DNA from: an uncultured Pelagibacteraceae bacterium
GTDB taxonomy: Bacteria; Pseudomonadota; Alphaproteobacteria; Pelagibacterales; Pelagibacteraceae
Direction of reading: 5' to 3'
DNA length: 64,000 bases
Assembly: GCA_902542165.1 (NCBI GenBank)
Contig: CACBTF010000002.1
Span: 8,446 to 72,445 of the forward strand
The first letter of the stretch is position 1, and each line of letters starts with the position of its first letter. Under the pieces are notes generated by a model. It did not search any database, was not told the DNA's origin, and was given only the letters and a program-made list of their open reading frames with translations. Shown in pieces: positions 19,642-58,915 of this stretch. The translations under genes were made by a program, and so were the position numbers.

Positions 19642-21033
19642 ATGGAAAATAATAATTTTAAAAAACAAAACGCTTTTATTTCAGAAGAGGAAAAGACTTT
19701 AAACTGGGATGAAATACAGAGCGCCTTTAAAAAAACTTTTGGCACTGAAGTTTACAATAGCTGGTTAGAAAAAATTACTCTAGTTAAAGAATATAACGAT
19801 TATTTGGTTCTTGGTGTCCCAACACGTTTCTTTAGAGATTGGATCGTATCGAGATATTTGGATAAAATTCTAGAACAAGTAAAAAATTTTAAATTAACAC
19901 TTAATAGAATAGAATTTAAAATCATAGATGAAAATAAGCAAAATCAAGAATTTATAAAGATTGATGAGCTTAATAAAGTAACTGAGATTAAAGACTCAAT
20001 TTTGAACTATAACAGGTTAAATCCTAACTTGAATTTTAGTAGCTTTTGCCAAGGGAAAAGTAACGATATTGCCTTATCATATTCAAAAAAAGTTTGTGAA
20101 CATATTTCACGTTACAACCCCCTTTATTTGTGTGGGGGAGTGGGTCTTGGAAAGACTCATCTGCTAAATGCTATTGGTTTAGAATTGCAGAATAATAATA
20201 ATGTAATGTTTATTTCTGCTGAGAGATTTATGTATCATTTTATTAAATCGATTAAGAAAAATGATATGGTAAATTTTAAAGATTTTTTTAGAAAATCATC
20301 TGTTTTCATCATAGACGATATCCAATTTATTAGCGGCAAAGAGAGTTTGCAGGAGGAATTTTTCCATACTTTTAATAGTTTAATGGATAAAGGTTCACAA
20401 ATTATTATTTCTTCAGACCGAGCACCTATGAAATTAGATAGAGTTCAGGATAGAATAAAATCTAGACTAGCCGGTGGTCTTGTAGTTGATATTGAAGCGC
20501 CTGATTTAGAATTAAAGATTAAAATAATTAAAAAGAAAATAGAAGAGATAGAAAACCAATTCAAAGAAAACATCAATGTTAGTGAAGAAGTTATTACTTT
20601 TATAGCTAGTGAAAGTAAAACTAACATCAGAGAACTTATAGGAGTGCTGAATAGAGTAATAGCGTTTAGCAGAGTTCATAATAAAGAATTAACTATTAGT
20701 GACTGTAAAAGTATTTTAAAAGACGTATTTAATCAAATTAGAATTATTACAGTGGACAAAATACAAAACGTTGTCTCTAATTATTTTAATATAGCTCTAA
20801 GTGAAATGCTTTCACAGCGAAGATCAAGACCATTAGCTAGACCAAGACAGATAGCGATGTACCTGGCAAAAAAAATGACAACAAGATCTTTGCCTGAAAT
20901 TGGAAGAAGATTTGCAAATCGTGATCATACAACGGTCATTCATGCAGTTAAAACTATTACGAGATTATCCGAACAAGACGATGAGATGAAAAAAAATATA
21001 AGTCAGATTAAAAGCTTATTATTAGAACAATAA
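19642..21033 (+). CDS. dnaA: Chromosomal replication initiator DnaA
   Basis: YNPLYLCGGVGLGKTHL, IDDIQF, QEEFFHTFN, RPRQIAMYL, SLPEIG, RDHTTVIHA. Confidence 0.98.
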   Translation: MENNNFKKQNAFISEEEKTLNWDEIQSAFKKTFGTEVYNSWLEKITLVKEYNDYLVLGVPTRFFRDWIVSRYLDKILEQVKNFKLTLNRIEFKIIDENKQNQEFIKIDELNKVTEIKDSILNYNRLNPNLNFSSFCQGKSNDIALSYSKKVCEHISRYNPLYLCGGVGLGKTHLLNAIGLELQNNNNVMFISAERFMYHFIKSIKKNDMVNFKDFFRKSSVFIIDDIQFISGKESLQEEFFHTFNSLMDKGSQIIISSDRAPMKLDRVQDRIKSRLAGGLVVDIEAPDLELKIKIIKKKIEEIENQFKENINVSEEVITFIASESKTNIRELIGVLNRVIAFSRVHNKELTISDCKSILKDVFNQIRIITVDKIQNVVSNYFNIALSEMLSQRRSRPLARPRQIAMYLAKKMTTRSLPEIGRRFANRDHTTVIHAVKTITRLSEQDDEMKKNISQIKSLLLEQ

Positions 21034-21037
21034 CTAA

Positions 21038-22153
21038 ATGCAATTTGTTGTTAAAAGAGACATCTTATTAAAATCATTAAATTTTGTTCAAGGTGTAGTC
21101 GAAAAAAAAAATACATTACCAATTCTTTCGAATGTATTGCTTCAACTTAAAGATAAAAAATTATCAATTATTGCAACTGATCTTGATATCATATTTTATG
21201 ATGAAATTATTGATGTAAAAATAATTAACGAGGGAAGCACCACTACTTCTGCAGCAATTTTATATGACATTTTAAGAAAAATTTCCTCTAATTCAGAATT
21301 GAACTTTAATTTAAAATCAGAAAATAAATTAAGCTTAAAGAGTGAAAATGCTGACTTTAATCTTTTGTGTTTACCAACTGACAATTTCCCAACTTTTGCT
21401 GATGAATTTGAAGGGCAGAAAATTTCATTAAACAATAACAGATTTTTAAAACTATTAAATAAAACAAAAATCTCAATATCTAACGATGATACTAGGCATT
21501 ATTTAAATGGAATTTTTCTACATTTAACTGAAGCTCATGGACGAAACTTTCTGACTGGTGTTGCTACAGACAGCCATAGACTTTCATCAAGTAGTCTTGA
21601 GATAGAAAATGCTGCGGATTTTAATTCTTTAATTCTTCCGAGAAAGACTGTATTTCAGTTATGCTCTCTACTCGCAGAGTCGTCTGATCAACTTTTAATG
21701 CAAACAGCTGACAATAAAATTAAGTTTAGTTTAGGTAATATAAAGCTAATATCCAAAGTTATAGACGGAAAATTCCCAGATTATAACAAAGTTGTTCCAA
21801 AATCGAACGATAAAACTCTCGAAGTATCCTCTAAAGATTTCATAAACTCAATCGAAAGAGTAGCAAGTGTATCACTTGATAGAAAAGAGGGAGTAAAATT
21901 ACTCATCAATAAAGATAATGTTCAACTTTCTGTTAATAGCGCAAACTCTGGTGAAGGAAATGAAAAAATAAAAGCTAGTTTTAATTCTGACAATCTAAAT
22001 ATAAGTTTTAACTCAAAATATTTGATAGAAATTGCATCTGAGATTGAAGATAAGAAATTAAAAATGAATTTAAAAGACTCTACTTCACCAGTTTTGGTTG
22101 AAGATGCTTCTGATAAAAATAGTTATTACGTAATAATGCCAATGAAAATCTAA
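21038..22153 (+). CDS. dnaN: DNA polymerase III beta clamp
   Basis: PILSNVLL, ATDLD, TRHYLNGI, VATDSHRL, IDGKFPDY, YVIMPM. Confidence 0.97.
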   Translation: MQFVVKRDILLKSLNFVQGVVEKKNTLPILSNVLLQLKDKKLSIIATDLDIIFYDEIIDVKIINEGSTTTSAAILYDILRKISSNSELNFNLKSENKLSLKSENADFNLLCLPTDNFPTFADEFEGQKISLNNNRFLKLLNKTKISISNDDTRHYLNGIFLHLTEAHGRNFLTGVATDSHRLSSSSLEIENAADFNSLILPRKTVFQLCSLLAESSDQLLMQTADNKIKFSLGNIKLISKVIDGKFPDYNKVVPKSNDKTLEVSSKDFINSIERVASVSLDRKEGVKLLINKDNVQLSVNSANSGEGNEKIKASFNSDNLNISFNSKYLIEIASEIEDKKLKMNLKDSTSPVLVEDASDKNSYYVIMPMKI

Positions 22154-22253
22154 ATTTAGAGAAATATGATTTTTTTTTATTTTTTGCTCTAAAAGGGTTG
22201 GTAAGTAATAGTTTTAAGTCACTCTGGTTGTACATGATTTTCTATTCGTTTGA

Positions 22254-24341
<2,088 letters not shown>

Positions 24342-24345
24342 ACAA

Positions 24346-25629
24346 ATGGATTTTTCGACCCTCTTTAGGACAAAAGAGAACTTAAGCTTAGATAAAAATA
24401 CATTAACAATCTTGAGGTATATAGCCACTATTGGACAAATCTTGGCAATTAGCATTGTTTTTTATTACCTAAATTTACCGTTTCCAATTATAGAAAGTTA
24501 TTTGATCATTTCATTGGGTTTAGCCACAAACTTATATCTTCAATTTGCGATTAAAATTAATCAACTAAAAGATTTTTATGCAGCTCCTTTTCTCCTTATT
24601 GATTTGTTACAACTTAGTGCGCTTCTTTATTTAACAGGAGGAATTTTTAATCCTTTTTCTTTTCTGTTAGTAATCCCAGCCATTGTTTCCTCGACATTTC
24701 TAAGTATGGGTACAACAATTATTTTAGGTTTAATAACATCATTACTTTTATTAACCATATCATTTTTTCATTTACCTTTGCCAGGCGAAAATATGAATTT
24801 GTTACATTTTCCAAATTTTTATAAAATTGGAATTATCATTTCTATATTAATTGGCTTAATATTTTTGAGTTATTTCGGAATTCGTTTCTCTGGTGAAAAA
24901 AAGAAAACAGAAGAAGCTTTTAAAAAACTTCAAGAGGTTATTTATAAAGAGTATGAACTAGAGTCTTTAGGTGGGCAGGCAGCAGCTGCAGCACATTCTC
25001 TAGGAACGCCTCTAGCAACAATAAGTGTGGTTGCTAAAGAATTGAAAAAAGAAATTGGTGAAAACAATGAGCTATCTAAAGATATTGATTTATTAATCAG
25101 TCAATCTAAAAGATGCAGTGAAATTCTAAAAAGAATTTCAAAAAAACAAATAGAGGAAGACAAATTTTTTAGCTCGACAAAATTAGAGAATTTGCTTGAG
25201 GAAATCATAAATTCTTTTAAAGAAACTTCGTCGAAAAAAATTACTTTAGTATTTGATAACGATAAAAATAAAATTGACATCCAAAGGTCAGCAGAAATGA
25301 TTTATGGTTTGAGGAATTTTATAGGCAATGCGATTAAATTTTCAAAAAGTAAAGTTAATATTTTTTTGATTAGTGATTATAAAGAAATCAAAATTATTAT
25401 AAATGATGATGGACCAGGATTTCCCAAGGATATTATTACTAAATTGGGAGAACCATATATTAAATCAAGATCATTAGAATTAAGTTCAAACTCAGGCTTA
25501 GGCCTAGGAACTTTCTTAGGCAAAACTTTATTGGAAAGACAAAATGCTAAACTATTGTTTAAAGAGGATAAAAATTTAGGTGGTGCTTCAGTAGTAATTA
25601 GCTGGTCTCCTAAGAATATTTTGCTTTAA
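24346..25629 (+). CDS. regB: Redox-sensing histidine kinase, RegB/PrrB/ActS family
   Basis: Multiple TM helices, LYLTGGIFNPF (GGxxNPF quinone site), AAAAAHSLGTPL, RC redox Cys, DDGPGF, GLGLG. Confidence 0.92.
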   Translation: MDFSTLFRTKENLSLDKNTLTILRYIATIGQILAISIVFYYLNLPFPIIESYLIISLGLATNLYLQFAIKINQLKDFYAAPFLLIDLLQLSALLYLTGGIFNPFSFLLVIPAIVSSTFLSMGTTIILGLITSLLLLTISFFHLPLPGENMNLLHFPNFYKIGIIISILIGLIFLSYFGIRFSGEKKKTEEAFKKLQEVIYKEYELESLGGQAAAAAHSLGTPLATISVVAKELKKEIGENNELSKDIDLLISQSKRCSEILKRISKKQIEEDKFFSSTKLENLLEEIINSFKETSSKKITLVFDNDKNKIDIQRSAEMIYGLRNFIGNAIKFSKSKVNIFLISDYKEIKIIINDDGPGFPKDIITKLGEPYIKSRSLELSSNSGLGLGTFLGKTLLERQNAKLLFKEDKNLGGASVVISWSPKNILL

Positions 25630-25637
25630 GAGTAAGC

Positions 25638-26684
25638 TTATTTTGGTTCTTGTTGTGTTAAACAATGAATCGCTCCAAAGCCCCAAATTAGTTCAGAACA
25701 ATCTATTGGAATAATTTTTCTATTATAAAATTCTTTTTTAAAAATTTTGATTACTATTTTATCCTTGGGGTCATTGAAAGTAGGTAATAAAACAAATTTA
25801 TTAAAGATATAAAAGTTTAAATACGATGCCGGAACTCTTATTTTATTTATATAAATAGGTCTAGGCATAGGAATTTTTTTAATTCTAATTTGTGAAGAAT
25901 TAATTCTGATTTTTTTCAAAATTTTATAGTTTTCATCAAGATTTTTGAAATTTTTATCTTTTTTATTATTTTCGTAAGCAAGAAAAACTTTATTATGTTT
26001 TACAAATCTAGCAATATCATCAACATGTCCATGAGTATCGTCTCCCTCAATTCCTTTATTTAGCCAAATAACTTTTTTTGCTCCTAAAAACTTTTTAAAT
26101 ATAAGATTATAATTTTTTATTTTTAAGAAAGAATTTCTTTGTTGAATTTTACTTAATAAGCATTCTTTGGTTGTGAGAAGTAAACCTTTTCCATTTACAT
26201 CGATCGCTCCCCCCTCGAGAACTATTGGTTTCTTATTAAACTTTGGAGTGATGACATTTCCTTTGTAATAATTTTTTATTCTCAAATTGATTTTATTATC
26301 CGCCCTATAATTTTTATATTTAGCCCAACCATTAAACTTCCAATTTAATAAAATATTTTGATTTTTTTTATTCTTAATAAATATTGGCCCCGTATCTCTC
26401 ATCCATACTCTATCTGTTTTACAAATAATAAATTTTACATTTTTTACTTTTGCATTATTTTTCCTGAGCAATCTTTTAATTTCATTCTTAGAATTGTAGT
26501 TTTTAATTAATAGATTTACTTCCTGTGACTTAGTAATTTTAGAGATTATTTCTGCAAATTTCTTGGGGATATTTTTAAATTTGCCTGGCCAATCATTTTT
26601 ATTATAAGGCCATCCTATTAATGTAGATTGTTGAATTTCCCATTCAGCTGGCATCCTGAAAAGAGATTTTGTTATTCTAGGCAT
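25638..26684 (-). CDS. aguA: Agmatine deiminase (peptidyl-arginine deiminase family)
   Basis: RMPAEWE, WMRDTGP, FNGWA.KY, LEGGAID, DDTHGHVD, ASYLNF, GAIHCLTQQ (catalytic Cys). Confidence 0.9.
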   Translation of the reverse strand: MPRITKSLFRMPAEWEIQQSTLIGWPYNKNDWPGKFKNIPKKFAEIISKITKSQEVNLLIKNYNSKNEIKRLLRKNNAKVKNVKFIICKTDRVWMRDTGPIFIKNKKNQNILLNWKFNGWAKYKNYRADNKINLRIKNYYKGNVITPKFNKKPIVLEGGAIDVNGKGLLLTTKECLLSKIQQRNSFLKIKNYNLIFKKFLGAKKVIWLNKGIEGDDTHGHVDDIARFVKHNKVFLAYENNKKDKNFKNLDENYKILKKIRINSSQIRIKKIPMPRPIYINKIRVPASYLNFYIFNKFVLLPTFNDPKDKIVIKIFKKEFYNRKIIPIDCSELIWGFGAIHCLTQQEPK

Positions 26685-27552
26685 CTCTTGGATTTTTAAG
26701 TAGTCCTTTATAATAGTCTATTCTTCTATCTCTAAAAAAAGGCCAATGTTGTCTAGAGGTTTCCACTTTGTTGAAATCAATTTCACAAATCAAAATGTTT
26801 TCTTTTAAACTGGCTTTTTTAACAACATTACCACTTGGATCAAATATTACACTATTCCCCCAGAACTCTATCTTTTTATTACCTTGTTTTTCAATTCCAA
26901 CTCTATTTACTGCAGCAATATATATACCATTAGCTATTGCGTGAGACCTTTGAATTGAAAGCCAGGACTCGAGTTGCGACTTACCATATTTTCTTTTTTC
27001 TTTTGGATGCCATCCAATAGCTGTTGGATAAAAAATAATTTCTGCACCTTTAAGAGCTGTTAATCTTGCTGCTTCAGGAAACCACTGATCCCAACAAATT
27101 AAAGTTCCTAAATTACCTTTTGAAGTTTTAAAAGATTTGAAACCTAAATCTCCAGGAGCAAAATAAAACTTCTCGTAAAATTGAGGATCATCAGGGATAT
27201 GCATTTTTCTGTATTTTCCTAAAAGTTTACCTTTTTCATTAATTACAATACTACTATTATGATAAAGCCCGGGGGTCTTCTTCTCAAATAATGAAATAAT
27301 TAAAATAATTTTCAGTTCTCTAGCAAGTGCAGAAAATAAGTTACTGCTAGGCCCTGGTATTTTCTCAGCGAAATTAAAGTTTTTATGACTTTCAACCTGA
27401 CAGAAATATTTTGTCATGAATAACTCTGGTAAGCAAATTACTTTTGCACCTTTTTTTGCTGCAAAATTAATTTTGTCGACAGCATTTTGAATATTTTTTT
27501 TTGGGTCAGACGACATTTTCATCTGCACTAATGCTATCTTCGTTTTACTCAT
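26677..27552 (-). CDS. aguB: N-carbamoylputrescine amidohydrolase-like carbon-nitrogen hydrolase
   Basis: Nitrilase triad LPELF / YRKMHIPDDP.FYEKFYF / ICWDQWFPEAAR, YPTAIG, FFRDRR; adjacent to aguA. Confidence 0.85.
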   Translation of the reverse strand: MSKTKIALVQMKMSSDPKKNIQNAVDKINFAAKKGAKVICLPELFMTKYFCQVESHKNFNFAEKIPGPSSNLFSALARELKIILIISLFEKKTPGLYHNSSIVINEKGKLLGKYRKMHIPDDPQFYEKFYFAPGDLGFKSFKTSKGNLGTLICWDQWFPEAARLTALKGAEIIFYPTAIGWHPKEKRKYGKSQLESWLSIQRSHAIANGIYIAAVNRVGIEKQGNKKIEFWGNSVIFDPSGNVVKKASLKENILICEIDFNKVETSRQHWPFFRDRRIDYYKGLLKNPRDA

Positions 27553-27558
27553 TATTTT

Positions 27559-28605
27559 TTAATTGAATAAATTTTGAAAATTTCTTTTTTGTCTTACTTG
27601 CCAATGTTTACGATGAAACGCATCGCTTGCTATTAGGGGTAATACACTTGTAGCTTCAGCAAACACCATTTGTTCCTTCGTCACATCCACTTTGCCCCAT
27701 GAACTTGCCTCTTTTAAGGTAGAACTACTACAAGCACCATCTCTCGTATCTGCCACAGTTATTTGAATAGCGTATTTATGCATATCTACCTTTTTACCTA
27801 ATAACTCCGCACAAACCACTGTATCCTGAATAAAATTTTTTGGTACCCCACCGCCAACCATTAACAATCCCGATTGTTTTGATTTGAGTTTAATTTCAGT
27901 TATTTCTCTGAACTCTCTTATTGAGTCTATAGTGATGTGATTTTCTGGATTTTGTTCCTGATGCATTACAAGCCCAAATCCTGCAGAACTATCTGTGAAA
28001 GCGGGACAAAATATAGGAACATTACTATCATAAGCAGTTTCTATTAATGAGTTTTTTTTCTTAGAATTTGTTTTTAAATATTTTCCAAGCTCTTTAATAA
28101 ATTCCCTTGAGGTATATGGTTTAGGTTTTAGAGAATTAGCAATATCACATATAGTTTTGTCACATGCTTGAAGCTCCTCTTCATCAATATAAGTGTCATA
28201 TATCCTGTCAATATAGTTGTTTCTTAGTTCAGTATCATCTTGAAACTGCGATCCCTGATAATGCTTGAAACCTAGAGCTTCAAAAAAATCCATATCTATA
28301 ATCGAGGCCCCTGTAGCCACAATAGCATCAACCATATTGTGTTTTACTAAATCAGTGTATAAATCCATGCATCCACCTGCCGAAGTTGAGCCTGCTAGAG
28401 TTAAAAAAATCGAACAGTCTTTATCTGCAAGCATTTCATTATAAATAGCTGCCGCTCTGGCTGTATCTCTAGAAGTGAAAGACATCTTACTCATACCATC
28501 AATAATTTTACGAGCATCAAAAGACTTGATATCGATGTGCTCAACTGGGGAATTAAGTAAAGATTTTTTATTGTGTCCGATATTCGGACTATTTTTTTTA
28601 TTCAT
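27559..28605 (-). CDS. Deoxyhypusine-synthase-like protein (bacterial SpeY / homospermidine synthase type)
   Basis: DRIYDTYI.EE.L, PIFCPAFTDSSAG, GGGVPKNF, EASSWGKV (catalytic Lys), AEATSVLPL. Confidence 0.88.
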   Translation of the reverse strand: MNKKNSPNIGHNKKSLLNSPVEHIDIKSFDARKIIDGMSKMSFTSRDTARAAAIYNEMLADKDCSIFLTLAGSTSAGGCMDLYTDLVKHNMVDAIVATGASIIDMDFFEALGFKHYQGSQFQDDTELRNNYIDRIYDTYIDEEELQACDKTICDIANSLKPKPYTSREFIKELGKYLKTNSKKKNSLIETAYDSNVPIFCPAFTDSSAGFGLVMHQEQNPENHITIDSIREFREITEIKLKSKQSGLLMVGGGVPKNFIQDTVVCAELLGKKVDMHKYAIQITVADTRDGACSSSTLKEASSWGKVDVTKEQMVFAEATSVLPLIASDAFHRKHWQVRQKRNFQNLFN

Positions 28606-29786
28606 TAAGCTACTAAAGAACCAACTTTATCATTATCTTTATCGTACATAGATATAATTGGTTTGTCACTTAATTCGTGAATATCATTTGAATAAAAACC
28701 GTTGAAGTTTGTTCTGAAAGTAAGACTGTAAGCCCCTAACTGACCTAACTCTATATAATCACCTTCTTTAATATTATTTGGTAACAAAAAAGGTCCTTTC
28801 ATATAATCTAATCCATCACAAGTTGGTCCAAAAAAACTAAAAGCAGTAAGTTTTTTAGACTGAATTCTCCCGCTTGTAATCATCTTTGATGGTAAAACAA
28901 AGTTTGGTGCTCCAGCGTCAAATAAAGATCCATATGTTCCATCATTGATGTAAAGGCTATTTTTTTTTCTTAAAATAACTTTAACGATTGTAGATCCACT
29001 TTCTGCAACAAGGGCTCTTCCTGGCTCACATATGATTTCTGGTAATTTATTTAACTTCAAGTTATTTAGCTCTTTTTTAATTTCTTCCATATAATTAATT
29101 AATGGTTCAGGATTAAGATCTGGATATATAGATGGAAATCCTCCACCTACATTAATTGTATTTGGTACTATTTTTGTTTTTTTTATTATATTTCCGATTT
29201 CACGAATTCCTTTTGAGTAAGAAATTTTATGCATACATTGAGAACCAACATGAAAACTTATTCCAAGTTTTTTTGAATGTTCCTTACACAATCTTACCAA
29301 TCCTAAAGCTTCTGAGGGGAGTGCGCCAAATTTTCTTGACAGATCTATTTCAGCGTGTTCATTCGATATTGCAATTCTTACAAATAGTTCTAAATCTTTC
29401 GCTTGATTAGTAGCCTCTAGAATTTTTCTCAACTCATCTTTGCTATCAAGAGAGAAACTTTTAACACCATAATTAAAGTATGCCGAAGATATACTCTCTT
29501 TACTTTTAATTGTGTGCATAAAATGTAATTTTGTATCTGACTTAATTTTATTAAGGAGTTTTATTTCATTTAGAGAAGCAACATCAAATTCATTAATACC
29601 ATTAGCAATAATCTGTTTAATAATTTTTTCGTTAGGATTTGTTTTTACAGCGTAGAGTATCTTTCCGGGAAAATGATCTTTAAAAAATTTTACGGATTTT
29701 TTAATCTCGTTAAGCCGTATACAATATACGGGGTGATCTGGTTGTAATGAGTTAACTAATTCGTTAACTGTTTTAAATTTTCCCAT
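28605..29786 (-). CDS. Fold-type III PLP basic amino acid decarboxylase (ornithine/lysine/arginine)
   Basis: YAVKTN (PLP Lys), FDVAS, KFGA, SFHVGSQ, NVGGGFP, EPGR, GPTCDGLD, GAY, FNGF. Confidence 0.9.
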   Translation of the reverse strand: MGKFKTVNELVNSLQPDHPVYCIRLNEIKKSVKFFKDHFPGKILYAVKTNPNEKIIKQIIANGINEFDVASLNEIKLLNKIKSDTKLHFMHTIKSKESISSAYFNYGVKSFSLDSKDELRKILEATNQAKDLELFVRIAISNEHAEIDLSRKFGALPSEALGLVRLCKEHSKKLGISFHVGSQCMHKISYSKGIREIGNIIKKTKIVPNTINVGGGFPSIYPDLNPEPLINYMEEIKKELNNLKLNKLPEIICEPGRALVAESGSTIVKVILRKKNSLYINDGTYGSLFDAGAPNFVLPSKMITSGRIQSKKLTAFSFFGPTCDGLDYMKGPFLLPNNIKEGDYIELGQLGAYSLTFRTNFNGFYSNDIHELSDKPIISMYDKDNDKVGSLVA

Positions 29787-29835
29787 TTCATGTGTTCCTC
29801 GTTAATTTACACAAAGATTTTTTAAAAAATTTAAT

Positions 29836-29873
29836 AAAAAAAACCTTATTTATTCCGCGTTTAAGGTTTTTTT
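29836..29873 (-). promoter_or_regulatory. Terminator-like hairpin in the decarboxylase leader
   Basis: Minus strand AAAAAAACCTTA-13 nt loop-TAAGGTTTTTTTT, about 50 nt upstream of the ATG. Confidence 0.4.
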
Positions 29874-29893
29874 GACTTTATGTAAAGAAAAAA

Positions 29894-29925
29894 AGGACAT
29901 TTTTGTCGTGTTGAAATTTTGTCAA
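29894..29925. promoter_or_regulatory. Possible tandem RegA-like boxes in the regA / polyamine divergent promoter
   Basis: AGGACATTTTTGTCGT and TTGAAATTTTGTCAA resemble the GACA-N-TGTCG RegA/RegR motif. Confidence 0.4.
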
Positions 29926-29945
29926 CAATACCTATATGAAGCTCT

Positions 29946-30518
29946 ATGAGACCACTAAAAAACGTTCCAGAGCAGCTAAAATTGGCAGACTTTGCAGATA
30001 AATCACTCCTTATCCTTGATGATGACGATCCATTAAGGGGAAGGCTCGCAAGAGCAATGGAGAAAAAAGGATTTCAAGTAAAAGAGGCTAAAACAGTGGC
30101 TGAAGGCCTTAATATTTCTAAGACAAATCCCACTGCTTTTGCAGTGATAGATCTTAGGCTTGAGGATGGTAATGGATTAGATGTTGTAAAGGAGCTCTCA
30201 AAAAATAATAAAGATAGTAGAATTGTAATGTTAACGGGATACGGGAATCTACCTACAGCTGTAGCTGCTGTGAAAGAAGGAGCAATAGATTATATAGCTA
30301 AACCAGTTGATGCGGATGATGTTGAGGCGGCTTTGTTAGCTTCTCCAGAGTCAAAAGCGAAACCACCCGAAAATCCTATGTCAGCAGATAGAGTAAAATG
30401 GGAACATATTCATCGTGTATTTGAATTGTGTAATAGAAATGTTTCAGAAACGGCTAGAAGACTTAAAATGCACAGAAGAACTCTTCAAAGAATTCTTTCC
30501 AAAAGATCTCCAAGATAA
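29946..30518 (+). CDS. regA: Redox response regulator, RegA/PrrA/ActR family
   Basis: Receiver domain plus PPENPMSADRVKWEHIHRVFELCNRNVSETARRLKMHRRTLQRIL.KRSPR. Confidence 0.96.
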   Translation: MRPLKNVPEQLKLADFADKSLLILDDDDPLRGRLARAMEKKGFQVKEAKTVAEGLNISKTNPTAFAVIDLRLEDGNGLDVVKELSKNNKDSRIVMLTGYGNLPTAVAAVKEGAIDYIAKPVDADDVEAALLASPESKAKPPENPMSADRVKWEHIHRVFELCNRNVSETARRLKMHRRTLQRILSKRSPR

Positions 30519-30520
30519 AA

Positions 30521-31072
30521 TTATACTAATTTTTTAATTTTTTTGATTTGATTAATTGCTAAGGTAGCAATTAGTATTTTGAAAAGCTCTGCAAGCAAGA
30601 ATGGTTGAGCCCCTAATTGAAAAATTGGCTTGTCCCAACCAATTAAACTACCCAACCAAGACATACCCAAAATATAAATAAAACTTGTGGCTAGCATAAG
30701 TTTTAAAAAGTTTTTTACTAAATTATTGTCGTAATTGAATTTCCCAGAAATATAAGCAGCAACTAAGAAGCCTACGAGATACCCCATCGTAGGACCAGTA
30801 AAGTAAACTAATCCTATACCTTTTTCTGGAGTTCCTGAAAATACAGGTAGTCCAATTATTCCTTCGAATAAATATAAAGAAACAGTTGCTAAACCAAGTT
30901 TCCAGCCAAAACCAATACCTATCATTAAAACTATTAAAGTTTGCATTGTCATTGGCACAGGATAGAAGGGGATTTTAATTTTTGAAGATACAGCCAGGAT
31001 AATACTTCCAATTAAAGCTAAGAAAACATATTTTAGCAATTTAGATTGTCTAAAACTTTTTACTAATTCCAT
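30521..31072 (-). CDS. bioY: Biotin transporter BioY
   Basis: PFYPVPMTMQT, YL.EG.IGLPVF, GPTMGYLVGF, PFLLAELFK. Confidence 0.9.
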   Translation of the reverse strand: MELVKSFRQSKLLKYVFLALIGSIILAVSSKIKIPFYPVPMTMQTLIVLMIGIGFGWKLGLATVSLYLFEGIIGLPVFSGTPEKGIGLVYFTGPTMGYLVGFLVAAYISGKFNYDNNLVKNFLKLMLATSFIYILGMSWLGSLIGWDKPIFQLGAQPFLLAELFKILIATLAINQIKKIKKLV

Positions 31073-31103
31073 ACATCTAAATAAACATTTTTTTCGTTAA
31101 AAT

Positions 31104-32033
31104 CTAGTGCTTTGTTAATTGGACAAATACATCTTCTAAGTCACCATCATCTGTAGAAATATCCTCAATTTTTATGTTGTTTTGATTAAAATAATTAATT
31201 ATTTCACCAAAATTTAATGAATTTTTTTCATATATTGCGGAAATTTGATTTTTTGAAATTATTTCAAATTTGATACCATTCATGACTAGAGAGAGATTTA
31301 AATCTACATTTTTAACTTTAAAATTGATTTTCTTAAATTTAATTCTCTCTAAAAGTTTTTCAGTTGTATCTAATGCAACTAAATTACCTTTATCAATGAT
31401 AGCAATACGATCACACATTTCTTGCGCCTCCAAAAGATAGTGAGTTGTTAAAATTATTGTTACACCCTCTTTATTTAGTTTTTTTACATTATTCCAAAGG
31501 TTGTTTCTAAGCTCCACATCCACCCCTGCTGTTGGTTCATCCAAAATTAATATTGGAGGCTGGTGAACCATTGCTTTTGCAATTAAAAGCCTTCTCTTCA
31601 TACCACCAGACAAACTTCTTGAATACGCATTAGCCTTACCTTCCAAGGAAACCATTTGGAGTATTAAATCTGTTATTCTATCTCTTTTGGCTATTCCATA
31701 AAGACCAGCTTGAAGTTCTAGTAATTGTTTTGGACTGAAAAAAGCATCTAAGTTTACTTCCTGCGGCACTATTCCTATAGAGGCTTTAACTTGTCTTGGG
31801 TTTTTGTCTAGATCGAAGCCCCAAACATTAACATTTCCAGATGTTTTAGTTACTGTTCCTCCTAAAATACTTAAAAAAGTTGTCTTGCCTGCTCCATTTG
31901 GCCCAAGCAGTCCGAACACTTCCCCCTCTTTAACCTCAAAATTTAAATCAGTTATAGCTTTAGTTTCTTTTTTTGTTTTGGAATTCGAATAGATTTTATT
32001 AAGATTTTCAACAGTTAAAGCATTATTAGACAT
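31104..32033 (-). CDS. ABC transporter ATP-binding protein (ABC-2/YadG type), no adjacent permease
   Basis: GPNGAGKT, LSGGMKRR, ILDEPTAGVD, LTTHY, C-terminal DLEDVF. Confidence 0.9.
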   Translation of the reverse strand: MSNNALTVENLNKIYSNSKTKKETKAITDLNFEVKEGEVFGLLGPNGAGKTTFLSILGGTVTKTSGNVNVWGFDLDKNPRQVKASIGIVPQEVNLDAFFSPKQLLELQAGLYGIAKRDRITDLILQMVSLEGKANAYSRSLSGGMKRRLLIAKAMVHQPPILILDEPTAGVDVELRNNLWNNVKKLNKEGVTIILTTHYLLEAQEMCDRIAIIDKGNLVALDTTEKLLERIKFKKINFKVKNVDLNLSLVMNGIKFEIISKNQISAIYEKNSLNFGEIINYFNQNNIKIEDISTDDGDLEDVFVQLTKH

Positions 32034-32075
32034 AATTTTTTAATCTTAGTTAAGAATTCAATGTAATATGTATAT

Positions 32076-34841
32076 ATGAGTTCAATAAAAAAAACAGATC
32101 ATTTTTATTTAATAGATGGTTCAGGTTATATATTTAGAGCTTATTATGCGTTACCGCCTTTATCTAGAAAAAGTGACGGTCTGCCTACTGGAGCTGTTAG
32201 TGGTTTTTGTTCGATGCTTTTTAAACTTTTAGAGGATGCTAGATCAGATAATACTAAAAACAAACCTACTCATTTTGCTGTTATATTTGATTCAGCTAGA
32301 AAAAATTTTAGAAATGAAATTTACAGTGATTATAAAGCAAACAGGACAGAAGCACCTGACGATTTAGCCCCTCAGTTTGAATACATAAGAAAATCTGTTG
32401 AAGCTTTTAATTTACCATCAATTGAACTTTTAAATTATGAAGCAGATGACCTTATAGCAACTTATGCAAAAAAAATTACAGAGGCAGGTGCAAATGTTAC
32501 TGTAATTTCATCGGATAAAGATTTGATGCAGTTAGTATCAAACAAAGTCAGACTATTTGATCCTATGAAAAGTAAAGTAATAGGTGAAAAAGAAGTAATC
32601 GAAAAATTTGGAGTTAAACCAGACCAAGTAATTGACGTGCAATCACTTGCCGGAGATAGCTCAGATAACGTTCCAGGAGTTCCTGGCATTGGTATAAAAA
32701 CAGCATCAGAACTTATCAATAAATACAAAACCTTAGAAAATTTATTAGAGAGAGCATCAGAAATACCTCAAAATAAAAGAAGAGAAACATTAATGTCTAA
32801 CAAAGATAAAGCCATGATTAGCAAGCAATTAGTTACTTTGAAGGATGATGTCCCACTTAAGAATGATGCTGCTGATTTTATCATTAAAGATATAAATAAA
32901 GATAAATTATATGATTTTTTAAGAGACATGGAGTTTAATAGACTGCTAAGCCAAGCAATTAGTTTTTATGGTGAGCCAACAAAAGGAGATTTTAAAGATA
33001 AAACTCTAGTAAAAAAAAATAATAAGATAAATACTAAGACCTACAAAACTATTTCAAAAGAGAAACAATTAGACGAATTAATAAAAAAACTAGATGAAAA
33101 ATCAGTTATAGCGGTTGATACTGAAACATCTTCTCTAAATCCACAAGAAGCGGATCTTGTGGGAATATCAGTATGTTATGAGGCTAACGAGGCTTTCTAT
33201 ATTCCAGTAGGTCATAAAGATAGAACAGAATTAAAAAAGGATATAGTTTTAAAAAAGCTTAAACCAATTTTAGAAGATCCAAGTATAAAAAAAGTCGGCC
33301 AAAATATAAAATATGATTTTATAATATTCAAAAATAACGGCATCGAATTAAGCTCATTAGAAGACACGATGTTACTTTCGTATACATTAGATGCTGGGAA
33401 TAATAGACACAACATGGATACTCTATCCGAACTGCACCTTGGTCATAAAACTATCTCGTATAAAGATTTAGTGGGAACTGGAAAAAAACAATTAAATTTT
33501 GCAGACGTAAAAATCAAACCTGCCACTGAATATGCTGCTGAAGATGCAGACATAACTCTTAGATTATATGAAGTTTTATCTGAAAGAGTATCTGAGGAAA
33601 AGTTAGAAAGAGTTTATGAGGAATTTGAAAAACCTATGATCAAAATCCTTTCAAGGCTTGAGATGAATGGTATAAAAGTTGATGACGCTTATCTTAAAAA
33701 ACTTTCTAAGAAATTTGAGGAAAGATTGATTATTATTGAAAAAGAAATTTATAAAATATCAGGTAAAAAATTCAATATCGGTTCTCCAAAACAACTAGGA
33801 GAAATTATTTATAATGACCTAAAAATAGCTAAGTTAAAAAAAACAAAAAAAGGTAGTTTAGCTACAAGTGCTAAAATCCTAGAGGATTTAGCTTTAACAG
33901 GACATAAATTTCCTAATTTAGTTTTAGAATGGCGACAGGTTTCAAAACTAAAAAGCACTTACACAGATGCTTTGCAGGATCATATAAGTAAAAAAACAAA
34001 AAGAGTTCACACTTCCTTCTTACTCGCAGCAACTAATACTGGTAGGCTAGCTTCAAGTGATCCAAATCTACAAAATATTCCTATAAAAACCTCAGATGGA
34101 AAAGAAATAAGAAAAGCCTTTGTAGCTGATAAAAATAATTTACTTATTTCAGCGGATTACAATCAAATAGAAATGAGAATTCTTGCTGATATGGCCGATG
34201 TCAAGGAATTAAAGAGAGCTTTTAAAAATAATCAGGATATCCACTCTTTAACAGCGAGCCAAGTCTTTGATGTTCCAATTACCAAAGTGACAGATGATTT
34301 TAGAAGAAAGGCAAAGGCCATCAATTTTGGAATTATTTATGGAATAACACAATATGGATTAGCAAAACAAATATCGGTGTCAAACGAAGAAGCTTTAAAT
34401 TTCATTAATTCATATTTTAGGAAATTTCCTGAGATAAAAGATTACATGAATACTACAATTAAAACTTGCAGGAAGCAGGGTTTTGTCACAAATATTTTTG
34501 GTAGAAGAATTCATTTAAGAGGAATTAATGATAAAAATTTTAGCGTACGTGCCTTTCAGGAAAGAGCAGCCATTAATGCTCCAATACAAGGTTCAGCAGC
34601 AGATATTATTAGATTGGCAATGATAAAAATTGATAAGGTTCTAGACGAAAAAAAGAAGGCAAAAATGCTTTTACAAATACATGATGAACTTATTTTTGAG
34701 TGTTTAAAAAAAGATGAGAATGAAGTAAAGAAGATTGTAAAAGAAGCAATGACTTCAATTTCAAGTTCAGATCATCATATGTTTTCAATACCTTTGGAAG
34801 TAAGTATAAATTCTGGAAACAATTGGGGAGAGGCCCATTAA
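32076..34841 (+). CDS. polA: DNA polymerase I
   Basis: 5'-3' exonuclease (YEADD, GDSSDNVPGV), DTET, TGRLASSDPNLQNIP, ADYNQIE.R, KAINFGIIYG, QIHDEL. Confidence 0.98.
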   Translation: MSSIKKTDHFYLIDGSGYIFRAYYALPPLSRKSDGLPTGAVSGFCSMLFKLLEDARSDNTKNKPTHFAVIFDSARKNFRNEIYSDYKANRTEAPDDLAPQFEYIRKSVEAFNLPSIELLNYEADDLIATYAKKITEAGANVTVISSDKDLMQLVSNKVRLFDPMKSKVIGEKEVIEKFGVKPDQVIDVQSLAGDSSDNVPGVPGIGIKTASELINKYKTLENLLERASEIPQNKRRETLMSNKDKAMISKQLVTLKDDVPLKNDAADFIIKDINKDKLYDFLRDMEFNRLLSQAISFYGEPTKGDFKDKTLVKKNNKINTKTYKTISKEKQLDELIKKLDEKSVIAVDTETSSLNPQEADLVGISVCYEANEAFYIPVGHKDRTELKKDIVLKKLKPILEDPSIKKVGQNIKYDFIIFKNNGIELSSLEDTMLLSYTLDAGNNRHNMDTLSELHLGHKTISYKDLVGTGKKQLNFADVKIKPATEYAAEDADITLRLYEVLSERVSEEKLERVYEEFEKPMIKILSRLEMNGIKVDDAYLKKLSKKFEERLIIIEKEIYKISGKKFNIGSPKQLGEIIYNDLKIAKLKKTKKGSLATSAKILEDLALTGHKFPNLVLEWRQVSKLKSTYTDALQDHISKKTKRVHTSFLLAATNTGRLASSDPNLQNIPIKTSDGKEIRKAFVADKNNLLISADYNQIEMRILADMADVKELKRAFKNNQDIHSLTASQVFDVPITKVTDDFRRKAKAINFGIIYGITQYGLAKQISVSNEEALNFINSYFRKFPEIKDYMNTTIKTCRKQGFVTNIFGRRIHLRGINDKNFSVRAFQERAAINAPIQGSAADIIRLAMIKIDKVLDEKKKAKMLLQIHDELIFECLKKDENEVKKIVKEAMTSISSSDHHMFSIPLEVSINSGNNWGEAH

Positions 34842-57709: not shown

Positions 57710-58915
57710 ATGATTTTAGCAAGAATATTTACAAAAATTTACAAAGAGGGTGGAATAATTTTAGTAGATGCAAAAGGACAAAAATATATTTGTGGCAATC
57801 CGAGAAATGAAAAACCAATCACCGTGAAATTATTCAAAGATAATCTTAGCTGGAAATTATTATTAGATCCTGAGCTTGAGTTTCCAGAAGCATATATGAG
57901 AAATGAAATTGAAATTGAAAATGCATCAATGAAAGATTTCTTAATGGATCTTTTAAAAAATTTAGGTAGAGGTGAAATCTCAACAACAAGTATAATTGCT
58001 AAAAAAATTTTTCAGGCATGGAGAACAGTAACAAATTTTAATTTACCAGGTAAATCAAGAAAAAATGTTGAGCATCATTATGACATTGGTGGATCAAGAG
58101 GTGAAAAGTTATATGATATTTTCTTAGATAAAACTCATAGACTATATTCTTGCGCGTATTGGAAAAATGATACGAAAACTTTAGAGGAAGCCCAACAAAA
58201 CAAAATAGATCATATTATTAAAAAATTAGACATAAAAGAGGGTCAAAAAATCTTAGAAGTCGGTTGTGGCTGGGGTGGTATGGCTTTTGAAATAGCAAAA
58301 CAAAAAAAATGCACGGTAACCGGAATTTCTTTGAGTAAAAATCAAATTGAATATTGTAAACGCAAAGCTAAGGAATTAAATTTAGACAACCAGGTTAAAT
58401 TTGAGCTTATTGACTACAGAGAAGCAAAAGGAAAATATGATAGAATTTTTTCTGTAGGCATGTTCGAACATGTTGGAAGAAAATTTTATAATACTTTTTT
58501 TAAATCGATGAATAGCCTCTTAAAAGATGACGGGATATTTTTATTACATACTATCGGAGTGGTAGATAAACCCTCTGCACCTAATAAGTTTATAAATAAG
58601 TATATATTTCCTGGCGGAGTTTGCCCTTCATTTAGTCAGATTATTAACCCAATAGAAAAAACTGGGTTAATTGTAGCTGATACAGAAACATTAATCAGGC
58701 ATTATGATAAAACTTTGGAAAGTTGGTTAGAGCGGTTTTTAGAAAAGAAAAAGGAAGTAAAAGATTTATTTGATGAAAGATTTGTAAAAATGTGGGAATT
58801 TTATATGGCTAGCTGTGCAGCAGCATTTAGATATAGAGATCTAGTCGTTTTTCAATTACAAATTGTTAAGAACTTTCAATCAGCTCACCGTACAAGAGAC
58901 TATATATATTCATAA
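57710..58915 (+). CDS. cfa: Cyclopropane-fatty-acyl-phospholipid synthase family methyltransferase
   Basis: NVEHHYD, YSCAY, LEEAQ..K, EVGCGWGG, SVGMFEHVG, KYIFPGG, HY..TL..W, MWEFY. Confidence 0.88.
   Translation: MILARIFTKIYKEGGIILVDAKGQKYICGNPRNEKPITVKLFKDNLSWKLLLDPELEFPEAYMRNEIEIENASMKDFLMDLLKNLGRGEISTTSIIAKKIFQAWRTVTNFNLPGKSRKNVEHHYDIGGSRGEKLYDIFLDKTHRLYSCAYWKNDTKTLEEAQQNKIDHIIKKLDIKEGQKILEVGCGWGGMAFEIAKQKKCTVTGISLSKNQIEYCKRKAKELNLDNQVKFELIDYREAKGKYDRIFSVGMFEHVGRKFYNTFFKSMNSLLKDDGIFLLHTIGVVDKPSAPNKFINKYIFPGGVCPSFSQIINPIEKTGLIVADTETLIRHYDKTLESWLERFLEKKKEVKDLFDERFVKMWEFYMASCAAAFRYRDLVVFQLQIVKNFQSAHRTRDYIYS

Follow-up and report, generated by a model that had tools for sequence, protein, structure and literature searches.

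What do four adjacent polyamine genes in a marine Pelagibacteraceae (SAR11) single-cell genome make, and from which amino acid? The genes occupy 25638–29786 on the minus strand of the window, the 64,000-nucleotide stretch of DNA analysed here, and encode an ODC-fold decarboxylase (28605–29786, 393 aa), the DHS-like protein SpeY (27559–28605, 348 aa), an AguB-like C-N hydrolase (26677–27552, 291 aa) and an AguA-like deiminase (25638–26684, 348 aa). The odc stop overlaps the speY start (TAATG), 6 nt separate speY from aguB, and aguB and aguA overlap by 8 nt. The initial annotation had described four coupled minus-strand genes with intact catalytic motifs, and this description proved accurate: the ORF coordinates are exact, and YAVK, SWGK, E-K-C and HC are all present. 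The same four-gene order is kept in 26 complete loci (28 when cut loci are included) of other SAR11 species genomes, and the arrangement is therefore not chance. On the aguA side, the plus-strand gene regB (24346–25629), encoding an ActS/PrrB/RegB histidine kinase (NF033792, 416.8 bits against a cut-off of 350), has its stop 8 bp from that of aguA. In L008 and loci related to it, speB is followed by this flank too: regB is the conserved downstream boundary of a swappable cassette and lies outside the pathway. On the other side, the 159 bp between the operon and the divergent regA (29787–29945) are presumed to hold the promoter; a sigma-70 consensus scan of this region gave no more sites than shuffled sequence, and it matched no Rfam family.

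The decarboxylase, an AR-fold ‘ODC’ homologue, matched Orn_Arg_deC_N (PF02784, 3.5e-36) and Orn_DAP_Arg_deC (PF00278) in Pfam searches but scored under every NCBIfam equivalog cut-off for LysA, DokD or SpeA. It retains the PLP lysine K48 (YAVK, 45–48) and a Cys-Asp active-site pair (C323-D324). Its gene lies directly upstream of speY in 80/80 SAR11 loci, and an ODC-like gene takes that place in 7/8 SpeY-encoding alphaproteobacterial families. Orthology of the operon proteins to characterised enzymes rests on synteny and on the 61–97% identity among SAR11 ODC homologues. Two ‘ODCs’ from SAR11 and Fonsibacter (394 and 396 aa; WP_075506504 and WP_099339815) decarboxylate only arginine in vitro, activity on ornithine or lysine being undetectable (PNAS 2023, PMC9992855). 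These homologues support the earlier suggestion that the enzyme may act on arginine; most likely it is an arginine decarboxylase, which would carry out the first step, L-arginine to agmatine. Apart from it, PF02784 matched only one sequence in the operon's genome, an open frame of 413 aa on contig C1.

SpeY carries a DS domain (7.5e-98, Pfam search) and passes the NF002699 equivalog cut-off (579.3 bits vs 500), whereas its scores against true deoxyhypusine synthase models (306, 241 and 235) each fall under the model's own cut-off. Its SWGK motif (302–305), which includes the catalytic lysine K305, aligns with the same motif in solved DHS chains. SpeY enzymes join two agmatines to form N1,N9-bis(guanidino)homospermidine (G44G), the Fonsibacter enzyme included (JBC 2026, PMC13625781): that orthologue gives G44G in E. 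coli without speB, and the same conversion is known for six others (T. thermophilus earlier, five more in PMC13625781). No tested SpeY works without agmatine, and the enzyme that uses putrescine is the non-homologous HSS (PMC13625781). Two routes to homospermidine had been envisaged for this operon, one through putrescine and one through a bis-guanidino intermediate; the former is excluded by the literature, while the latter agrees with the formation of G44G by SpeY. As demonstrated for the Fonsibacter enzyme, SpeY would use NAD+ and its active-site lysine to convert two agmatines to G44G and one NH3.

The two hydrolases resemble canonical Pseudomonas aeruginosa AguA and AguB (agmatine to putrescine) in fold and in their predicted guanidino-then-carbamoyl chemistry, but differ from them in missing the curated equivalog cut-offs. 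In Pfam searches, the AguB-like protein matched CN_hydrolase (PF00795, 1e-64) and the AguA-like protein PAD_porph (PF04371, 4e-103); the E43/K116/C153 triad of the former (PELF, YRKMHIP, CWDQ) and the catalytic H340-C341 of the latter (GAIHCLT) are present. Canonical identities were rejected on scores of 302.6 vs 410.25 for AguB (TIGR03381), and of 245.7 vs 381.8 (TIGR03380) and 258.2 vs 483 (NF010070) for AguA, which points to diverged paralogues. Identity between the AguA-like protein and the AguAs of genomes without SpeY was 24–32%, with one outlier at 37% (L097). In a quick tree of AguA, the SAR11 proteins grouped with L088, from a SpeY-encoding genome, in a clade with 100% support; the 35 rows on the opposite side all lacked SpeY, and the SpeY label needed 2 changes, against a shuffled mean of 12.4. 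SpeY-linked AguAs formed two separate clades, the union of which was weakly supported (87). In the AguB tree, a clade of SAR11 and L088 again had 100% support; its stem measured 0.67, and the remaining alphaproteobacterial AguBs in the sample fell outside it. By sequence, then, the AguA and AguB of SpeY-encoding alphaproteobacteria form clades of their own, and long branches separate both operon proteins from their counterparts in genomes lacking SpeY.

By deimination, AIH homologues turn G44G into the bis-carbamoyl compound C44C, as seen when the Fonsibacter AIH was co-expressed with SpeY, and every AIH tested produced C44C, canonical ones included (PMC13625781). The co-expression result supports, for AguA, the proposal made for this operon at the outset that AguA and AguB strip a bis-guanidino intermediate. 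By its fold, its His-Cys pair, its place in a speY operon and its clade, the AguA-like protein fits a diagmatine iminohydrolase (DIH, a G44G iminohydrolase), and on the co-expression evidence it would turn each of the two guanidino groups into a carbamoyl group, with C44C and 2 NH3 as products. The AguB-like protein, by its triad, its DIH and speY neighbours and its clade, fits the proposed N1,N9-bis(carbamoyl)homospermidine (C44C) amidohydrolase (NCHAH, PMC13625781 Fig. 4), which would strip both carbamoyl groups to leave homospermidine, 2 NH3 and 2 CO2.

How specific the deiminase might be is suggested by Rhizorhabdus wittichii, whose DIH is, like the operon AguA, a SpeY-associated AguA homologue. 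This enzyme, the sole SpeY-linked AIH with kinetics, is G44G-specific, with undetectable activity on agmatine; the canonical P. aeruginosa AIH uses both substrates (PMC13625781). In R. wittichii, ODC lies directly upstream of speY and the AIH and NCPAH genes are elsewhere (PMC13625781), whereas here all four genes are together. L128/L086 and genome G101 show the R. wittichii type of arrangement, with AguA in the SpeY-linked clade that lacks SAR11. Our guess, from gene arrangement, is that the R. wittichii AIH falls in this non-SAR11 clade, and strict G44G specificity may therefore not carry over to the SAR11 type.

Very probably, then, the operon makes sym-homospermidine from arginine, neither passing through putrescine nor releasing urea. 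The native polyamines of SAR11 strain HTCC1062 include homospermidine; cultured SAR11 contain mainly spermidine and little homospermidine, and HTCC7211 is without native homospermidine (PMC8437039). Two arginines bring 8 N, of which homospermidine keeps 3 and SpeY releases 1 as NH3, the remaining 4 leaving as 2 urea or 4 NH3; nitrogen economy, as first proposed, may be the rationale of the operon. The initial annotation knew of no characterised example of the combination, a statement now out of date: the ammonia-not-urea homospermidine route is already known from work on close relatives published in 2023 and 2026 (PMC9992855, PMC13625781). With the pathway settled in the literature, the operon adds no new biochemistry.

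The Ca. Fonsibacter ubiquis ODC/ADC-SpeY-NCPAH-AIH cluster (PMC9992855 Fig. 2; PMC13625781) comprises the same four families in the same gene order, and its host is likewise a member of the Pelagibacterales. ADC, SpeY (G44G) and AIH (C44C) activities have been shown experimentally for its proteins; Fonsibacter is a freshwater organism, whereas this lineage is marine. The SAR11/Anabaena/Thermus pathway of ADC, SpeY and SpeB (diagmatine ureohydrolase) shares its first two steps and its product with the operon, and in sister SAR11 lineages occupies the identical locus with the same flanking genes (L008, L127). There a single speB-type Mn-ureohydrolase replaces the third and fourth steps at the same position and would release 2 urea, in place of the 4 NH3 and 2 CO2 expected from deiminase plus amidase. 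Chlorovirus PBCV-1 (ADC-AIH-NCPAH-HSS) also combines an ODC-fold ADC with AIH and NCPAH and ends in homospermidine, but passes through putrescine with a non-homologous HSS where the operon has SpeY; the two ODC-to-ADC changes (PBCV-1, SAR11/Fonsibacter) are considered independent (PNAS 2023, PMC9992855).

Other roles for the hydrolases have to be weighed. It is very improbable that the decarboxylase is a true ornithine/lysine enzyme, that SpeY condenses putrescine, and that AguA and AguB independently catabolise imported agmatine. Among solved structures, bacterial lysine/ornithine decarboxylases match the decarboxylase best, source annotations name cluster members ‘ornithine decarboxylase’, and SAR11 takes up agmatine (PMC8437039), but this account is already contradicted for close relatives by the substrate ranges of the SAR11/Fonsibacter decarboxylases (PMC9992855) and by the dependence of every tested SpeY on agmatine (PMC13625781). 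Moreover, speB takes the place of aguBA at exactly this site, and in none of 50 speB-type genomes was aguA found at another position, which ties the hydrolases to the operon. That the hydrolases process G44G but also turn some agmatine into putrescine, for conversion to spermidine by a SpeD-aminopropyltransferase (APT) fusion, would add to the homospermidine pathway; we consider it unlikely. Cultured SAR11 has spermidine as its main native polyamine (PMC8437039), the operon's genome encodes such a fusion (L085:1300-2181), and no other putrescine source was found in that genome, which is 59.6% complete: it yielded no arginase-family gene, and its one further PF02784 match is the 413-aa frame mentioned above. 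The published list of spermine/thermospermine synthases that produce N1-aminopropylagmatine does not name the Pelagibacter APT fusions (PMC11107197), which would thus need putrescine; canonical P. aeruginosa AIH, as noted, accepts both substrates. Against such dual use stand the undetectable agmatine activity of the R. wittichii AIH, the argument of the same authors that a hydrolase using up agmatine would deprive SpeY of its substrate (PMC13625781), the avid import of putrescine and spermidine by SAR11 via PotABCD (PMC8437039), and the incompleteness of the genome.

The APT fusion might instead aminopropylate agmatine itself, with AguA and AguB converting the N1-aminopropylagmatine to spermidine, so that the hydrolases would serve spermidine as much as homospermidine. 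Agmatine was aminopropylated by 17/18 bacterial spermidine synthases (PMC11107197), AIHs of several bacteria thought to act on N1-aminopropylagmatine also accept G44G (PMC13625781), and the genome has the fusion; however, Pelagibacter fusions behave as Spd/Spm/Tspm synthases, spermine/thermospermine synthases made no N1-aminopropylagmatine bar a list of exceptions from which Pelagibacter is absent (PMC11107197), and translational coupling joins the hydrolase genes to speY and not to the APT gene. We regard this route as quite improbable.

The homospermidine pathway gains a further argument from the genes that follow speY. In a survey of the 80 SAR11 species genomes nearest to that of the operon, speY was directly followed by aguB-aguA in 28/80 and by a speB-type ureohydrolase in 51/80, with one locus cut; never were both present, and never neither. 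The alternation of speB and aguAB at this locus, raised as a question in the initial annotation, is thus real, and occurs at exactly the same site. Loci L062 and L071, for example, share 97.7% identity across the 7029 bp that end at the speY stop, and 95.7% beyond the cassette; boundaries this precise imply that [aguB+aguA] and [speB] serve one and the same function after SpeY. aguA was not found anywhere in 50 speB-type genomes; absence of speB from the operon's own genome is weak evidence at 59.6% completeness. Among representatives of the SpeY-encoding alphaproteobacterial families, pairing was with speB in 4/8 and with aguA/aguB in 4/8.

On the ODC+SpeY tree of 76 SAR11 lineages, the cassette type changes at least 9–10 times. 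Guanidino removal may be a two-state swappable cassette, ureohydrolase (urea) or deiminase plus amidase (ammonia), at a fixed site after speY, exchanged that often between near-identical flanks, and maintained as a polymorphism by selection. We offer this full reading tentatively, as possible but somewhat unlikely. Urease was undetected in 40/51 speB-type genomes, and cassette choice could thus affect the cell's nitrogen loss; across the SAR11 genomes, an association of cassette type with urease disappeared under phylogenetic control.

PNAS 2023 places clusters of the agmatinase type in marine Pelagibacter and those with AIH/NCPAH in Fonsibacter (PMC9992855). Contrary to what that wording suggests, the ammonia-releasing form extends beyond freshwater Fonsibacter: it occurs in about one third of the 80 marine SAR11 genomes. 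Modules that release urea and modules that release ammonia substitute for each other at a single precise site, often in genomes that are very closely related. Were selection on nitrogen economy or urea excretion to be behind this, speB-type SAR11 would be a steady source of urea, and the cassette would give a small marker that can be counted, showing the nitrogen strategy of the most abundant bacterium in the ocean.

Four minus-strand open reading frames called at positions 25638–29786, in a window of roughly 30% G+C, coincide exactly with the operon that the initial annotation had placed there. The genes are translationally coupled: odc and speY meet in TAATG, speY and aguB are 6 nt apart, and aguB and aguA overlap by 8 nt. 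Their products match Pfam Orn_Arg_deC_N plus Orn_DAP_Arg_deC (odc), deoxyhypusine synthase, DS (speY), CN_hydrolase (aguB) and PAD_porph (aguA), and every catalytic motif previously named is present: YAVK in the decarboxylase (45–48; C323-D324 is also found), SWGK in SpeY (302–305), an intact E43/K116/C153 triad in AguB and an intact H340-C341 in AguA. SpeY fell below the cut-off of every true deoxyhypusine synthase (DHS) model among the curated profiles, the AguB-like protein scored 302.6 against a canonical AguB equivalog cut-off of 410, and the AguA-like protein 245.7 against 382. The decarboxylase likewise reached no equivalog cut-off among the curated models; three of the four proteins (the decarboxylase and the AguB-like and AguA-like proteins) are therefore diverged paralogues of the enzymes that their folds suggest. 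Chlorovirus arginine decarboxylase (ADC) has Glu at the position of ornithine decarboxylase (ODC) Asp-332. The window decarboxylase retains NDG (N281-D282), which seems to correspond to that position; if so, its arginine specificity would have arisen differently from that of the chlorovirus enzyme.

The proposal that this ODC-fold enzyme acts on arginine agrees with published work, in which arginine was the only substrate of the purified ‘ODCs’ of Ca. Pelagibacter ubique SCGC AAA797-I19 (394 aa) and Ca. Fonsibacter ubiquis (396 aa) (PNAS 2023, PMC9992855). The Fonsibacter cluster, given in the Figure 2 legend of that paper as ODC/ADC, DHS/SpeY, NCPAH (AguB-like) and AIH (AguA-like), shares all four genes with the window in identical order, while the Pelagibacter cluster has an arginase/agmatinase homologue instead of NCPAH and AIH (PMC9992855). 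SpeY enzymes, including that of Fonsibacter, convert two agmatines to N1,N9-bis(guanidino)homospermidine (G44G) and need a hydrolase for homospermidine to appear; when paired with its own AIH, Fonsibacter SpeY gives N1,N9-bis(carbamoyl)homospermidine (C44C), and an AIH homologue from R. wittichii, named ‘DIH’ by its authors, is specific for G44G, with no activity on agmatine (JBC 2026, PMC13625781). Removal of the carbamoyl groups of C44C by an AguB-like amidase, giving homospermidine, is the predicted final step. Of the two routes to homospermidine offered initially, that through a bis-guanidino intermediate is thus favoured and that through putrescine is not (PMC13625781). The feature is real and, given the published SAR11, Fonsibacter and R. 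wittichii enzymology, the homospermidine reading is correct, by analogy where the window's own proteins are concerned. Earlier papers cover the pathway in the sister genus and the decarboxylase of this family, so that the description of the combination as uncharacterised is outdated and its novelty gone (PMC9992855, PMC13625781).

Of two cultured SAR11 strains, HTCC1062 was found to contain native homospermidine and HTCC7211 was not, spermidine being the dominant polyamine of each (Noell et al. 2021, PMC8437039). That spermidine is the main SAR11 polyamine bears on a further reading, in which the hydrolase pair also turns over some agmatine. The genome to which the window belongs has a gene for the Spd/Spm/Tspm synthase known from SAR11, a fusion of AdoMetDC (SpeD) and aminopropyltransferase (L085:1300–2181, contig C36, cut by the contig end), and no source of putrescine was found in its assembly (638 kb, 36 contigs, 59.6% complete): no arginase-family gene turned up, and beyond the window decarboxylase PF02784 matched just a single open frame, of 413 aa, on contig C1. 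On these grounds the hydrolases may also process agmatine, which we regard as possible though rather unlikely and which is compatible with processing of the bis-guanidino intermediate as the main role. The fusion gene directly follows mtnA and a class-II aldolase gene (mtnB-like), so that polyamine synthesis adjoins methionine salvage. Elsewhere in the window, positions 58190–58546 (contig C2, 66635–66991) weakly match Spermine_synth at 23.6 bits, just above the Pfam cut-off; the 402-aa plus-strand frame containing them may encode a methyltransferase-fold protein rather than an aminopropyltransferase.

The operon separates regB (24346–25629, plus strand), with dnaN and gyrB further out, from the divergently transcribed regA (29946–30518, plus strand), an arrangement shared by the complete SAR11 genome L127 and by the SAR11 group to which the window belongs. 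In the second of the major SAR11 groups (L023) the genes directly after speY, here termed the cassette, are followed by a Vut_1 transporter, L28, dihydroorotate dehydrogenase and class-I lysyl-tRNA synthetase. Within the odc–regA intergenic region, positions 29900–29935, read on the minus strand as GTTGACAAAATTTCAACACGAC, form an imperfect inverted repeat around TTGACA that could be a candidate operator or promoter element. No regulatory RNA matched Rfam at E ≤ 0.1 across window positions 20000–34000, and promoter-like and terminator-like sites upstream of the operon did not outnumber those in shuffled sequence.

Among 150 alphaproteobacterial families, each represented by one genome, an AguA homologue was present in 41 and SpeY in eight. 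The ODC-like gene adjoins speY in 7/8 SpeY genomes, and the partner is speB in four and aguA/aguB in four. The notion that AguA presence predicts SpeY was rejected, as only 4/41 AguA-positive representatives have SpeY; it is the AguA clade, not AguA presence alone, that is informative. AguAs from the four SpeY genomes, together with SAR11 sequences, formed two well-supported clades, with a single AguA from a genome lacking SpeY beside one of them and the other 35 such AguAs on the opposite side of the tree. The AguB tree recovered the same two clades, on long stems, and the two trees together speak for specialised functions of both window hydrolases. The SAR11 sequences group with those of SpeY genome G204, with which they share the order aguB-aguA, whereas G209 (L089:346–4600) has odc-speY-aguA-aguB and hydrolases of the other clade, a family pattern also noted for L087 (G141). 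Identity of the L089/L087 proteins to those of the window is 28% for AguA and 37% for AguB. From clade and gene order the four-gene combination was apparently assembled at least twice, and the L089/L087 operon appears to have arisen by a separate assembly of this pathway. The R. wittichii kinetics may concern the other AguA clade than that of SAR11. A search of protein representatives for AguA relatives outside SAR11 gave 987 with E ≤ 1e-30, the top one 56% identical.

A SpeY-protein scan of species-representative genomes gave 590 relatives, of which the best 80 (78–99% identity) were all Pelagibacteraceae, mostly single-cell genomes; the host is a marine SAR11. The alternation of speB and aguAB for which a survey had been suggested was found among these 80: within 200 bp after speY, 28 loci carried aguB-aguA (two of them cut after aguB) and 51 an arginase-family gene that passes the TIGR01230 agmatinase model (190–203 bits, cut-off 174). 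One locus ended too early to type; in the 80 loci there was none with both modules and none with neither. None of 50 speB-type genomes searched yielded an aguA homologue.

Returning guanidino nitrogen as NH3 had been proposed to suit a nitrogen-limited cell, and agmatine toxicity in urease-less HTCC1062 and HTCC7211 has been ascribed to agmatinase-derived urea (PMC8437039). Among these incomplete single-cell assemblies ureC (TIGR01792 above cut-off) was called in 11/51 speB-type and 0/28 aguBA-type genomes (Fisher p = 0.006). The 11 positives (L026, L028–L034, L044, L048 and L050; ~965 bits) are closely related, and in nine phylogenetically independent pairs differing in cassette urease almost never differed. 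The apparent exclusion is therefore a clade effect, its positives confined to one part of the tree, and a link between urease and cassette was rejected; the nitrogen-economy idea is chemically sound and unsupported. The urease alpha gene of the L031 genome is broken by TAA.

In 10/28 aguBA-type genomes an arginase-family gene different from that of the speB-type loci is located elsewhere than the operon. At L082:1354–2343, where an aldehyde dehydrogenase gene follows it, it scores 312 bits against NF002564 ‘agmatinase’ (cut-off 302), and it may encode a catabolic guanidino-compound hydrolase; were it a true agmatinase, it would be at odds with the published argument that SpeY and canonical agmatinase are incompatible.

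Cassette replacement is exact. L062 (aguBA) and L071 (speB) share 97.7% identity over 7029 bp to the speY stop and 95.7% beyond the cassette, yet the cassettes themselves (1970 and 903 bp) are unrelated; comparing L068 with L081 (flanks 92% and 90%), L014 with L013 and the window with L008 gives the same picture. A concatenated ODC+SpeY tree (76 rows, quick IQ-TREE) requires 10 changes of cassette type, at least nine of them forced by well-supported branches, against a mean of 23 for shuffled labels (0/500 shuffles as low as 10). The AguA and AguB trees mirror the two major SAR11 groups of that tree. L062 AguA has only 66% identity to the nearest AguA of the set, although its flanks are near-identical to those of speB-type neighbours, which argues that the cassettes are old. 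Cassette alternation within marine SAR11 found no match in the literature searched, may nevertheless be reported elsewhere, and is the sole addition made here to published work; its simplest reading is a long-standing polymorphism, reshuffled by homologous recombination in conserved flanks.
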